Of a stretch of 64,000 bases of DNA, positions 40,234 through 60,075 are shown in pieces. The position numbers and the translations under genes were made by a program. The stretch comes from Shigella phage vb_GEC_SH_GT: the sequence record OR887633; one strand, given 5' to 3'. Position 1 is the first letter of the stretch. Each line of letters opens with the position of its first letter. Under the pieces are notes generated by a model, which ran no database searches, was not told the DNA's origin, and saw nothing but the letters and a program-made list of their open reading frames with translations.

Positions 40234-40241
40234 TATTTATA
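40234..40241 (-). promoter_or_regulatory. late promoter TATAAATA for soc
   Basis: exact TATAAATA on minus strand inside the 3' end of the HNH ORF. Confidence 0.6.
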
Positions 40242-41073
40242 AACCATTTTCAAACCTCTTTATCATATTTATATAGTTTTCATCGGGATAACCTAGACTA
40301 ACTGCTAACTTTCTAAAATTGACATATTTAGGTTTGTTGTTATTAATCCATAATTCTCTAAGCTCTTTTTCATAATTCCATTTAAGTTGATTTCTGCGTG
40401 CAGTTTTGCTTAAAGTTTTTCCTTTAGCTTTTAAAGCTTTTTCGGATGATTGTTTTAATTTTTGAATATTTAAAACTTCTTCTATAGATAAATTATTTTC
40501 CTTTGAATACCTTATGCAAAAATCTTTTACTACGGCTATTAGGCAATTTTTGTGAGTACCTAAAATTTCTGGATTATTTTCTTCAACTAAAATTCCCCAA
40601 TATCTTCTGTAGCGAGGCATATCCCTTGAAATCCAGTCATTATACCAAAAATCAAAGTTGGAATACATGAAAGATTTTCTTTTGCGAAGAGTATCTTGGT
40701 TTATCCATTGCTCACGTTTATCAGCCCATAACTTAATAGTAAAGTCTTTCTCTAAGTCAGAAAGCTTCTTAAATTGCGAGCTATTTACTGAGGTCATTCT
40801 CTGGAATGCATTTAGCAATCCAAATCTTCCAGTTGAACATAAGAGATAGTGAACATATATGTGTTGATATATTGGGAGATATACTCTATTCCAAGGATAT
40901 ATTTTAAAATCACTATACTCAGGAAATGCGCATTTAGGAAGTATATGATGGGCTTCTGTTTTAGATTTAATGTGAGTGTTTAACTTATACTTATCTATAA
41001 TTTTTAAGTACTCATCTAAAAGTTCCCATTGCGGGAACTTTTCTTTAAGAGCAGATTTGAAATTAATATCCAT
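40237..41073 (-). mobile_element. putative HNH-family homing endonuclease
   Basis: 278 aa from ATG at 41073 (track start is TTG); TEAHHILPKC motif; basic C-terminal half. Confidence 0.45.
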
Positions 41074-41581
41074 TATCTTGACGTTCAAAATTATGTTTGT
41101 TCTTCAGGTAATAAAGTTTAAAGATTTCTTCAGCTGTAAGACCAAGACCCTGGAACATATTCAGAACGAAATGAAGAATATCAATCATTTCAAATTTAAT
41201 TTCTAACTGGTCTTGCGGAGACAAATCAGTAATTAGAGTTTCACGGCGTTCACCATGTTGAGCTTTCCAAGGCTTCCATACAGCAGATGCATCTTTTTCG
41301 CCATTGCTCATACCGCCAAGAGAAGTTAGAAGTTCGCGGAATTCATCATCAATATAATCTTTCTGATTGCGCAGCCAATCAACAACTTCACCTGCGGTAG
41401 CCAAATCATCAGGATGACGGTTATATTCAGGTTTATCTTTAGCTAAACGAACCTGTAGAGATTTCTGCATATCAAGCATAACCTGCAGCGGGTCTTTTTC
41501 ATCACCAAGAATATCCCAGTATTCATTTTGAGCTTTATCAACACCTTCGATCAAATGAGCGCATTCATTAAAATATGCCAT
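41063..41581 (-). CDS. 56: dCTP pyrophosphatase gp56 (MazG-like)
   Basis: ATG at 41581 (MAYFNEC...); sequence and position. Confidence 0.8.
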   Translation of the reverse strand: MAYFNECAHLIEGVDKAQNEYWDILGDEKDPLQVMLDMQKSLQVRLAKDKPEYNRHPDDLATAGEVVDWLRNQKDYIDDEFRELLTSLGGMSNGEKDASAVWKPWKAQHGERRETLITDLSPQDQLEIKFEMIDILHFVLNMFQGLGLTAEEIFKLYYLKNKHNFERQDNGY

Positions 41582-56980: not shown

Positions 56981-57009
56981 GTAATTTCCTTCAATTCAAA
57001 TGAGATTTA

Positions 57010-57036
57010 ATTTTATAACTAATTTAATAAAGCAAT
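57010..57036 (-). promoter_or_regulatory. candidate MotA-dependent middle promoter for gene 45
   Basis: minus-strand ATTGCTTTA (MotA box) about 12 bp upstream of TATAAAAT. Confidence 0.4.
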
Positions 57037-57425
57037 TAACGATTAAAATCAGCAGCAATTGTTTCCGCAACAATTTGAGCAGCAACAATTAGACGTTCAT
57101 CTGCATTACCGCAATAATCATCTTCAAGGCGTTCACCGCATGAAGTCATAATAAATTTAGCACCAGCATTTAGAGATTCTGCCGTATGTTTGCGCATCAG
57201 TTCGATCCATTTATCACTCACTTCACGATCGATAGCTTCATAATACGCATGACGAGCAGGTGCAGATTTAATTTTGCTTTGAATAACTTCCATTGCGTTA
57301 TTAGAAAGAGACAAAACCCATGCTCGACGAATTTTATTTTGGTTTTGTGGATTTGAATCAGAACGCACGTGTTTTGGCTGAATATCTTTTACGTCAACAG
57401 TATAATTCACAGTAATTTTAGTCAT
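57036..57425 (-). CDS. rpbA: RNA polymerase-binding protein RpbA
   Basis: 129-aa ORF; position. Confidence 0.7.
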
Positions 57426-57434
57426 AATACACCT

Positions 57435-57626
57435 TTAGTCATAGTAATCAGTAACAGTCCAAGCTTCATTTCTGTTGGACATTATTTTCGTATATTCTGC
57501 TTTAAATGCATTCTTAAGCATAGATTCAGTAACTATATGCTCTTCATTAGAAAAATTATTTCTCAGAATATATCGTTTTATTTCAGGAATAGTTAATAGA
57601 TGCTGTCCAGTTGAATATTCTGCCAC
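57435..57626 (-). CDS. hypothetical protein (45.2 position)
   Basis: 63-aa ORF, GTG start with GGAGG SD. Confidence 0.4.
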   Translation of the reverse strand: MAEYSTGQHLLTIPEIKRYILRNNFSNEEHIVTESMLKNAFKAEYTKIMSNRNEAWTVTDYYD

Positions 57627-57636
57627 AGTTCCTCCG

Positions 57637-57644
57637 TATAAATA
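57637..57644 (+). promoter_or_regulatory. late promoter TATAAATA for plus-strand HNH ORF
   Basis: exact TATAAATA 34 nt upstream of ATG at 57678. Confidence 0.55.
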
Positions 57645-57677
57645 TATTTATCACTCGCTGTATCAAAAGGATATGTT

Positions 57678-58394
57678 ATGAATTATAAACTAATTTATGA
57701 AAAGTTAATCTCTAATGCTAAATCTCGAAAACTTGATTGCTATACTGAATCTCATCACATTATACCACGCTGTTTAAATGGCAGCGATGATGCTTCAAAC
57801 TTAGTAGATTTAACACCAGAAGAGCACTATGTAGCTCATCAACTTTTAGTAAAAATTTATCCTTCTGAACCAAAATTAGTCTATGCTGCTAACATGATGA
57901 CAGTTTCCACGAAATACGCTAAACGCAACAATAAAACTTTCGGTTGGATTCGTCGTAAACTCTGGGAAATAGAAAAGAATAAAGAATTCTCCCAGGAGAC
58001 ACGAAAGAAAATGTCTAATGCAGTAGCTAATAAAGCAAGACTAACTTGTCCTCATTGCGGTAAATCTGGATTAAGCGGGAATATGAATCGATGGCATTTT
58101 GATAACTGCCCTAATCACCCTAATCCTAAAGTTAGACCACCGATGTCTAAAGAACACAGAAATAATATCTCAAACGGACTTAAAGCAATCGTTCTTGAAG
58201 AAACATCCTGCGAATTCTGCGGAATGATAGGCAAGAAATGCGTTATCGCAGCGCATAGAAATTTCTGCAAGAAAAATCCAAATGGACGCAAGAAAACTGA
58301 AAAGACTGGTACTTGCGTCCATTGTGGTAAAGTTACCACTTTCGGAAATTTATCAAGGTGGCATAATGATAACTGTAAATATAAACCTAGCTAA
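57678..58394 (+). mobile_element. HNH homing endonuclease with C-terminal zinc-finger-like repeats
   Basis: 238 aa; HNH motif ESHHIIPRCLNGSDDASNLVDLTPEEHYVAH; three CxxCG...WHxDNC units; opposite strand to flanking genes. Confidence 0.7.
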
Positions 58395-60075
58395 TCTTAG
58401 CTAAACTAAATCTACCAACTTTTTCCATCTGAATATGCTGACCATATTCTTGTGGGTCATGGTCTTTATGCGAAATTATGAAGAAGTTGGTATCCTTCAA
58501 ACCATCTAAAATTTTAGCTACATTTTTAATACCTTCAGCATCAAATGCGCCGTCATACACTTCATCAAGAAATAAACAACTTATTTTAACACCTGAAACT
58601 TTTTCAGCAATATCACGCCAAGTAAATAAAAGAGCAATATCAATTCGTGCTTTTTCACCTTGACTAAATGAAGCATAACTAAAATCTTCACGACCACGGG
58701 ATTTAATTGTCTCATTAAATTCTTCATCTAATGTAAACACATAATCCGCTTCCATTATTTTAAGATAATGGTTAATCTGCTTATTAAATAATGGAATGTA
58801 CTTTTTAATAATAGCACCTTTAATACCAGAATCTTTGAGCATATCAGTCAAAATTCCTCTGTGGTATTTTTCCATTACTAAATTAGTTTTTGTCTTAACA
58901 ATTTTATCAAGTTCTTCTTGAAGCAGTGCTATTTCATCGGCATGGTCAATAAACTCAGATGATGCTTTTTCTATAGCCGCTTTAACTTTTTTAGCTTTAT
59001 CTACCGTCGTGATTAAGGATTGCTTTTTATTGCGAATATCATTTGCCAATGACTGTTGGGTTTTAATATTATCTCGGTATTCATCAACAAGAACTTTTAA
59101 ATTATCACGATGTGTTGAAAGCTGTTCAAACGAATGCGTGCATTCAGAAACTTTATCTTTAATTTTAGAAACAACTTTATCACCGGAACTTAATTGTGAC
59201 AAACAGGTTGGACATAATCCACCTTCGTGATACATATTAATGACTTTATTATACGAGTCAATTTTTGATTTAATCAAAACTGCTTCTTGACCGATTTTAT
59301 TAAATGCATCAGTCGGATCTTCATCTAAAACAATATTAACTAATCTTTCATTAGCTTCTTCTATTTCCGATTTTAGCGTTCTAGCTTCCTTTGCCAAATC
59401 ATCATACATATTCTGCAGACGAGTAAGATTGTCACCAGATAATTTTTTCTGACGTTCAACATTATCATTATATATTTTAATTTGTTGGATAATACTATCT
59501 TTTTTAACATCAAGCACTTGGTTTTGTGAATTTAATTCACGTATTAGTGCTTTATTAAGCTTATCCATTTCAGCTAATGTTCCTACTTCGAGCAGGTCTT
59601 CGACAAGCTTTCTTCTTGCAGGAGTGGATAGGCCCATGAAAGGGGTATATCCAGCCGTGCCGAGTACGACGATCTGTTTGAAACTGGCGTATGACATTCC
59701 GATAAGCTGTTCAAATTCTGCTTGGAAATCTTTACTGCTGGCAGATTCATTAAGACGTGTACCGTTAACGGTGATTTCGAAAACATTTGGTTTTTGTCCT
59801 CTTTTGATATAGTACTTTTTCTCATCATATTCCATCCACAGTTCAACTAAAAGCTCTTTCTTATTTGTACTGTTTATTAATTGACCTTTCTTTACATCAC
59901 GAAATGGCTTGCCAAAAAGCCCAAATGTGATGGCTTCTAACATAGTAGACTTACCGCCGCCATTTCGCCCAGTAATAAGAGTTTTTTGAACCTTATCTAG
60001 TTGAATGTCAATAGGATTTCCACCTACTGACATTATATTTTGATACCTAACTCGGTTTAGTTTAAAATTCTTCAC
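58387..60075 (-). CDS. 46: recombination endonuclease subunit gp46 (Rad50/SbcC-like ATPase)
   Basis: 562 aa; Walker A GRNGGGKST; central coiled coil with CPTC zinc hook; GTG start with AAGGAA SD. Confidence 0.85.
   Translation of the reverse strand: MKNFKLNRVRYQNIMSVGGNPIDIQLDKVQKTLITGRNGGGKSTMLEAITFGLFGKPFRDVKKGQLINSTNKKELLVELWMEYDEKKYYIKRGQKPNVFEITVNGTRLNESASSKDFQAEFEQLIGMSYASFKQIVVLGTAGYTPFMGLSTPARRKLVEDLLEVGTLAEMDKLNKALIRELNSQNQVLDVKKDSIIQQIKIYNDNVERQKKLSGDNLTRLQNMYDDLAKEARTLKSEIEEANERLVNIVLDEDPTDAFNKIGQEAVLIKSKIDSYNKVINMYHEGGLCPTCLSQLSSGDKVVSKIKDKVSECTHSFEQLSTHRDNLKVLVDEYRDNIKTQQSLANDIRNKKQSLITTVDKAKKVKAAIEKASSEFIDHADEIALLQEELDKIVKTKTNLVMEKYHRGILTDMLKDSGIKGAIIKKYIPLFNKQINHYLKIMEADYVFTLDEEFNETIKSRGREDFSYASFSQGEKARIDIALLFTWRDIAEKVSGVKISCLFLDEVYDGAFDAEGIKNVAKILDGLKDTNFFIISHKDHDPQEYGQHIQMEKVGRFSLAKIS

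Follow-up and report, generated by a model that had tools for sequence, protein, structure and literature searches.

The T4 replication/recombination block of Shigella phage vb_GEC_SH_GT (record OR887633) is made up of minus-strand genes, and a plus-strand ORF separates 44, 45, rpbA and 45.2 from 46, 46.1, 46.2 and 47. This arrangement raises the question of whether the ORF is a mobile endonuclease gene that entered a conserved gene block, as an earlier note made from the letters of the sequence had proposed, and of where in the neighbouring DNA a target for such an enzyme should be sought. In this work we analysed the ORF, its product and its flanks. All positions are those of the window, by which we mean the whole stretch of 64,000 nucleotides; the features discussed are collected in Table 1.

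The gene and its setting

The 238-codon plus-strand ORF described in the earlier note lies where it was placed, between 45.2 and gene 46, and it does share its last 8 bp with the stop region of gene 46. This overlap is real, yet it is not a conserved feature, as its length varies among carriers: it is 4 nt in phage ESH35 and absent in IME281. A scan for intrinsic terminators found none between the endonuclease gene and gene 46, and the scan for sigma-70 promoters and intrinsic terminators returned nothing exceeding shuffled sequences. RNA folding gave no significant structure for the 5' leader (z -0.94) or for the convergent 3' junction (z -0.48).

Table 1. Features of the endonuclease locus (positions in the window) and orthologues found at the same site in other phages
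Feature	Position	Strand	Remarks
Left cassette edge: altered 45.2 start and GGAGGAA ribosome site	57621..57636	-	Back to back with the late promoter
TATAAATA, predicted T4-type late promoter -10 element for the endonuclease gene	57637..57644	+	Exact match; 33 nt before the ATG
5' leader with Shine-Dalgarno AAGGA (57667-57671)	57645..57677	+
Endonuclease ORF, 238 aa and stop	57678..58394	+	ATG start; free-standing HNH homing endonuclease gene
N-terminal nuclease domain, aa 1-100	57678..57977	+	Homology, profile, model
HNH motif, E24 to H54	57747-57839	+
NUMOD3-like helix, aa 103-115, FSQETRKKMS	57984..58022	+	Weak Pfam match
Putative zinc finger 1, C124-x2-C127-x12-H140-x3-C144	58047..58109	+	Ligands nearly invariant
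Putative zinc finger 2 (degenerate), C178-x2-C181-x11-H193-x3-C197	58209..58268	+
Putative zinc finger 3, C213-x2-C216-x12-H229-x3-C233	58314..58376	+	Ligands invariant
Convergent stop/stop overlap of the endonuclease gene and gene 46, 8 bp, CTAGCTAA	58387..58394	both
Gene 46	58387..60075	-	Converges on the endonuclease ORF
Endonuclease-linked allele of the gene 46 3' end	58395..58605	-	Encodes gp46 Walker B / D-loop / H-loop
Dhakavirus orthologue (IME281)			64% identity; same site as the gene at 57678
Mosigvirus orthologue			58% identity; same site, same strand
Slopekvirus orthologue (phT4A)			42% identity; same site, same strand
Klebsiella phage Roth67 orthologue	locus L052, 1501-2235		64% identity; same site; pseudogene

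An already annotated gene

Judged by its sequence and position, the ORF is the same gene as RB32ORF054w of phage RB32 (DQ904452), which already stands in GenBank as a homing endonuclease: the two proteins are 99% identical, the genes occupy the same site with the same neighbours and the same 8-bp overlap, and nothing of substance differs between them. RB32ORF054w is annotated as a 'putative site-specific intron-like DNA endonuclease, similar to mobB', and copies are labelled 'homing endonuclease' in about 58 other Tequatrovirus records; over the surrounding 2 kb, many Tequatrovirus genomes match the window with 98-99% identity. A 2010 review credits RB32 with two mob-like HNH genes (PMC2993671). 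Among the papers searched, our look for work on the RB32ORF054w gene found no paper and no experimental study. By these comparisons there is nothing unusual about the ORF: it is a Mob-like homing endonuclease gene of the free-standing HNH kind that had been annotated before. Its annotation as a putative homing endonuclease dates from the RB32 genome, its behaviour is that of the textbook model, and its significance is in this respect small.

The protein has 2294 homologues at E <= 1e-5 and matches the PHROG 655 family ('homing endonuclease') with an E value of 8.6e-69. That it might be an antisense ORF arisen by chance in an AT-rich genome, or an artefact of annotation, is hardly credible: this would agree with the fact that TATAAATA is no more frequent in the window than chance predicts, but it is refuted by the homologues, the PHROG 655 match, the conservation of the motifs and the purifying selection described below.

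Another ORF for a Mob-like HNH homing endonuclease, 283 aa long and with an EAHHILPKC motif, is present in the window at 40237-41088 on the minus strand. It matches PHROG 655 (E 9.1e-34) and, weakly, the ORF at 57678 (25% identity over 184 aa), and two minus-strand copies of TATAAATA lie at its 3' end (40234-40241 and 40266-40273).

Sporadic distribution and orthologues at the same site

Whether the ORF is universally present at this site had been named in the earlier note as decisive for its reading, and the comparison across the 45.2-46 junction shows that it is not, as the insert is spanned by 59 of the 655 phage records that match window positions 57000-59000. The ORF itself is found at 95% identity or more in 58-59 records, so carriers make up about 12% of Tequatrovirus (about one in eight; 59 of roughly 500 records), with roughly 445 records lacking the gene. 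T4, RB7, RB14, HY03, ime09 and others have instead a 55-bp spacer between 45.2 and 46. When the T4 empty site was used as a query, 504 records matched, most of them across the junction, and the carrier records that were sampled matched the left flank only. Similarly, 29 of the 30 IMG/VR relatives with the junction are empty, and the remaining one, IME281, has the 64% orthologue. The gene thus has conserved genes on both sides and is found in some close relatives and not in others, as is characteristic of Mob-type genes. Together with the homology, this sporadic distribution supports the proposal that a free-standing homing endonuclease gene is inserted in a conserved gene block.

At least five groups of T4-like phages have an orthologue at this site (Table 1), on the same strand in Mosigvirus, Roth67 and Slopekvirus, and matches in Enterobacter and other Klebsiella phages likewise overlap gene 46. 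In Roth67 a stop codon replaces W90 and the copy is annotated as two 'homing endonuclease' CDSs; on this evidence the copy at this site is in decay. The gene of the window belongs to a set of 10 Tequatrovirus alleles, all 10 of them full length, in which 29 synonymous and 8 non-synonymous variable sites were counted for 143 synonymous and 568 non-synonymous sites, a ratio of about 0.07 that indicates purifying selection on the protein. One and the same endonuclease lineage, at one site in at least five phage groups, therefore offers a natural series for the homing cycle, with predicted active, diverged and pseudogenised copies.

These data bear on the possibility that the gene is defunct or decaying and persists only by hitch-hiking on a gene 46 allele or on embedded regulatory signals, like I-TevIII in T4. 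The low proportion of carriers, the split Roth67 orthologue and an extended -10 element that runs antisense inside the ORF (see below), and that might make the cassette hard to lose, would all fit such a history. Nevertheless, we consider it very unlikely for the Tequatrovirus copies, given their uniform full length, their excess of synonymous changes and, across 26 homologues, the invariance of the catalytic residues and zinc ligands (nearly so for finger 1, and among close homologues only for finger 2).

An HNH head and a predicted modular DNA-binding tail

The earlier note had read a clear HNH motif in the ORF. The alignment bears this out, as six residues (E24, H26, H27, N41, H50 and H54) are invariant among 26 homologues, but Pfam does not: the HNH model (PF01844) gave 16.9 bits (E 0.007), under its gathering score of 21.4, a cut-off that the divergent Mob-type motif does not reach. 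Taken with the profile alignment, the invariant residues match the HH..N..N..H catalytic motif of the HNH superfamily, in which a histidine is the general base, an asparagine is structural and His/Asn is a metal ligand. The profile built from the 26-homologue alignment matches the HNH motifs of McrA (E 0.0021) and of a group II maturase (E 0.0016), and it also lines up with those of IscB and Cas8-HNH (E range 0.002-0.08 overall). Searches with the single protein sequence were less productive, a marginal maturase match (E 0.31) being the only one in the PDB and a sub-threshold IscB match the only one in NCBIfam. The AlphaFold (AF2) model of the 238-aa protein has a mean pLDDT of 87.4 and a pTM of 0.50, and in it the nuclease core is predicted to fold as a beta-beta-alpha unit (strands E24-27 and E42-45, helix H47-60). 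An inactive HNH motif, which the earlier note had named as grounds for abandoning its reading, was not found; the residues of the motif are all in place and do not vary, and selection on the protein is purifying. The N-terminal domain also has relatives in the Vibrio phage ICP1.

The nuclease domain is followed by a stretch that resembles NUMOD3. The NUMOD3 model (PF07460) does not pass on amino acids 103-115 (E 0.19; 12.2 bits against a cut-off of 20.4) and is carried by many homologues, which suggests that this stretch is a degenerate copy at best. A second NUMOD3-like helix lies at about amino acids 156-170, and the AF2 model places helices at both stretches (H106-117 and H158-169).

The remainder of the tail carries the three CxxCG..WHxDNC repeats reported in the earlier note, of which fingers 1 and 3 are exact. 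The middle one departs from this formula: it reads CEFCG..AHRNFC, which keeps the C-x2-C..H-x3-C logic in degenerate form, and its ligands are kept in close full-length homologues only. All three fingers are predicted by the AF2 model to adopt a beta-beta-alpha fold (E121-123, E130-132 and H133-143 for finger 1; E175-177, E184-186 and H187-196 for finger 2). The C-x2-C-x12-H-x3-C spacing would fit a classical TFIIIA-like finger, but the last ligand is a cysteine. The best Foldseek matches are CTCF finger arrays, with an E value of 0.03 only, and no Pfam zinc-finger model passes on the fingers, nor does any Pfam model cover them. The plan that best explains these observations is an N-terminal HNH (beta-beta-alpha-metal) head joined to a modular tail for DNA binding, in which NUMOD3-like helices are combined with three CCHC fingers. 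A MobA-E-like N-terminal nuclease followed by a variable C-terminal DNA-binding region is the organization of Mob-type enzymes, and the matches to MobB, MobE and PHROG 655 place the protein among them.

A predicted late promoter

The exact TATAAATA that the earlier note placed ahead of the ORF is present there and is identical in all nine aligned carrier loci. The window contains 8 copies of TATAAATA for 10.35 expected by chance, so that the mere presence of this element is no evidence; the weight of the promoter prediction rests on position and conservation, not on the count. The position is that expected of the -10 element of a T4 late (gp55-dependent) promoter, suitably upstream of the gene. 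As to conservation, TATAAATA is kept in four of the five distant orthologue groups, 33-46 nt upstream of the ATG, including Dhakavirus, Mosigvirus and Roth67, where it still precedes the split copy; the phT4A orthologue has TCTTAAATA in its place. In addition, the leader motif TTTATC..TCGCTGTATCAAA..AGGA is common to orthologues with just 57-65% protein identity. Late transcription would start at the gene's own TATAAATA promoter, on the strand opposite to that of the early replication/recombination genes.

A conserved predicted promoter and leader could also be expected of a domesticated nuclease or DNA-binding protein that serves the phage and for which self-propagation is not the main function. 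Such a protein could exclude co-infecting relatives or satellites, or act in late regulation, for instance by antisense or convergent transcription into gene 46, with which the gene converges without a terminator between them; the purifying selection on the protein and the ICP1 relatives of its N-terminal domain agree with such a role. However, the patchy distribution of the gene among near-identical phages speaks against a needed function, and the exclusion of competitors' markers is what homing endonucleases do anyway. Domestication is for this last reason hard to separate from homing, and we regard it as distinctly unlikely.

A bounded cassette linked to an allele of gene 46

The borders of the insert were defined by a junction comparison of 9 carrier and 14 non-carrier loci, using anchored flank alignments. 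The cassette measures about 985 bp (57621-58605) and takes the place of the 55-bp spacer ATAGAGATTATACTCTAATAAATTAAAGCATAATCTCTTATAAAT. At its left edge, the 45.2 start in carriers is GTG with an extra Ala codon, compared with ATG in non-carriers. At its right edge the cassette includes the 3' end of gene 46, so that gp46 ends in ..RFSLAKIS in carriers and in ..RFTVMV in the others. gp46 is the Rad50-like subunit of the nuclease that resects breaks.

Within the gene 46 tract (58395-58605) carriers and non-carriers are 16-26% apart, with 46 fixed differences of which the last is at 58578, whereas carriers differ among themselves by about 1%; the strongly diverged part covers the last 185-210 bp or so of the gene. 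Divergence between the two groups equals that within them, with zero fixed differences, both in the left flank and in the part of gene 46 that is more than about 210 bp away from the stop. The nearest neighbour of five to six of the nine carriers is a non-carrier in both flanks, while the two classes are at least 20% apart in the tract; on these alignments carriers and non-carriers intermix in both flanks. The last 200 bp or so of gene 46 exist in Tequatrovirus as three alleles that are 20-26% apart in nucleotides, with many amino-acid changes, compared with 1-3% in the remainder of the gene; non-carriers have the two other alleles, T4-type and RB14-type.

The third allele is as frequent as the endonuclease gene in the records searched. 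Database-wide, the linked allele is found at 95% identity or more in 59 records, the same number as carrier records, and the next best match is at 81% or less; one atypical case, ESH35, was checked and carries the gene. No genome with the linked ('immune') allele and without the endonuclease gene was seen among them, and the loss phase of the homing cycle is consequently documented by the Roth67 pseudogene only.

A second genus provides a replicate. In Dhakavirus, gene 46 of the carrier IME281 was compared with that of a JS98-like phage that lacks the endonuclease gene: identity is 74%, 65% and 88% in the three successive 100-nt intervals counted from the stop, and 98-100% at distances greater than 300 nt. 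What is new here is the delimitation of the cassette and its linkage, in 59 records, to a gene 46 end of about 200 bp that is diverged by about 20%; this narrows the search for the target, and the Dhakavirus replicate backs the narrowing.

The source of the linked tract was sought among sequenced non-carriers and no donor was identified, the best non-carrier match being 81%. The protein encoded by the tract resembles that of Roth67 (CLFLDEVYDGAFDAEGIKNV), with only 71% nucleotide identity. DEV(Y/F)DGA is common to the endonuclease-linked gp46 alleles of four groups; DEVFDSA or DEVFDGS is found in most non-carriers, and one non-carrier (L008) also has DEVFDGA.

The same footprint could be read without recourse to a target site. 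The linked gene 46 tract could be a non-homologous block that was acquired by a single ancestral introgression and spread by general recombination; being too diverged to recombine, it would then simply travel with the endonuclease gene. The alternative that we favour, homing, is developed below.

Two further elements were noted at the junction. The 55-bp spacer between 46 and 45.2 (1448-1502 of the T4 locus L003, with an equivalent in 14 of 14 non-carrier loci) has TGCTTTA-N11-TATAAT on its minus strand, a sequence similar to a MotA-box middle promoter and placed inside the inverted repeat AGAGATTAT/ATAATCTCT; the cassette deletes this MotA-box-like element. Within the cassette, an extended -10 element, TGGTATAAT, lies at 57759-57767 on the minus strand, antisense in the HHIIP codons of the endonuclease and about 135 nt upstream of 45.2. 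The orthologues of Dhakavirus, Mosigvirus and Roth67 have kept this nonamer at synonymous positions, and that of phT4A has not. The nonamer may serve 45.2-rpbA-45 as a replacement promoter embedded in the endonuclease gene; its conservation could also be a by-product of codon usage.

In the carrier phage Aplg8, another annotated homing endonuclease (L039 4592-5001) occupies the 46.1 position, just upstream of gene 46, so that in this phage gene 46 is flanked by two endonuclease genes.

A proposed model for homing at gene 46

Intact, under purifying selection, related to mobB and mobE, sporadic in its distribution and carried, as the alignments indicate, by a bounded cassette on differing flanks, the gene most likely encodes an active, late-expressed Mob-type homing endonuclease, with a putative target that probably lies in the 3' end of gene 46 or in the spacer. 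A cleavage site in neighbouring DNA of relatives lacking the gene was implied by the earlier note, and the sharply bounded, endonuclease-linked gene 46 tract, with its replicate in Dhakavirus, makes a target there plausible.

The steps that we propose are drawn by analogy from MobE (PMC2790892) and from the T4 homing pathway in general (PMC2988022). When carrier and non-carrier infect together, the helix-and-finger tail would bind a long asymmetric site in the endonuclease-free allele, most likely in the 3'-terminal 200 bp or so of gene 46 or in the 45.2/46 spacer, and the HNH head would nick or cut this allele at the bound site. The break would be resected and repaired by recombination-dependent replication with the endonuclease-carrying genome as the template, and repair would copy into the recipient both the endonuclease gene and the linked gene 46 end. 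The carrier allele would be immune, because it has lost the spacer and its gene 46 end is about 20% different. The footprint seen at the population level is consistent with super-Mendelian inheritance and co-conversion of flanking markers.

A more elaborate version of this model can be envisaged, although we think it rather unlikely. The candidate target would be the part of gene 46 that codes for the Walker B, D-loop and H-loop motifs, read by three TFIIIA-like fingers for which there is no curated model, and the element would carry a functional replacement ATPase module as its immunity determinant. It may in addition supply, through the antisense extended -10 element in the HHIIP codons, a promoter that replaces the displaced 45.2 promoter, and would hence be hard to lose.

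Comparison with known endonucleases

The closest nuclease domain is that of T4 MobB, with 47% identity over the first 130 amino acids. The C-terminal DNA-binding half of MobB is unrelated to that of the protein studied here and its gene lies at a different locus, between a-gt and a-gt.2; MobB has no known target (PMC2988022).

MobE, from phages of the T4 species, is related over its full length (35% identity, E 3e-34). The two proteins share the N-terminal HNH domain, the NUMOD3-like repeats and a terminal CxxC..WHxDxC finger, and mobE, located between nrdA and nrdB, is also free-standing and sporadic. The two genes differ in their expression. mobE is promoterless and is co-transcribed with nrdA on the same strand, this expression being limited by an internal terminator (PMC2790892), whereas the gene at 57678 lies on the strand opposite to its neighbours and has its own predicted late promoter; it also encodes three fingers instead of one and occupies another locus. 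MobE nicks nrdB of T2 in a strand-specific manner and the flanks are co-converted (PMC2790892).

The general plan of an HNH head with an extended DNA-binding domain is, by its description in the literature, similar to that of I-HmuI from the Bacillus phage SPO1, which is cited in work on MobE as a monomeric HNH nicking enzyme (PMC2790892). I-HmuI is intron-encoded, unlike the free-standing gene studied here, and our searches gave no significant sequence or fold match between the two proteins.

Finally, I-TevI and its relatives have a late promoter directly upstream of the ORF (PMC2988022), as is predicted for the gene at 57678. They belong, however, to the GIY-YIG family and are embedded in introns, in contrast with this HNH gene. 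Autorepression of the I-TevI type acts through an operator that resembles the homing site; such an operator was rejected for the leader described here, which has no such similarity to the empty site of T4 (best score 9, for a shuffle mean of 9.8).
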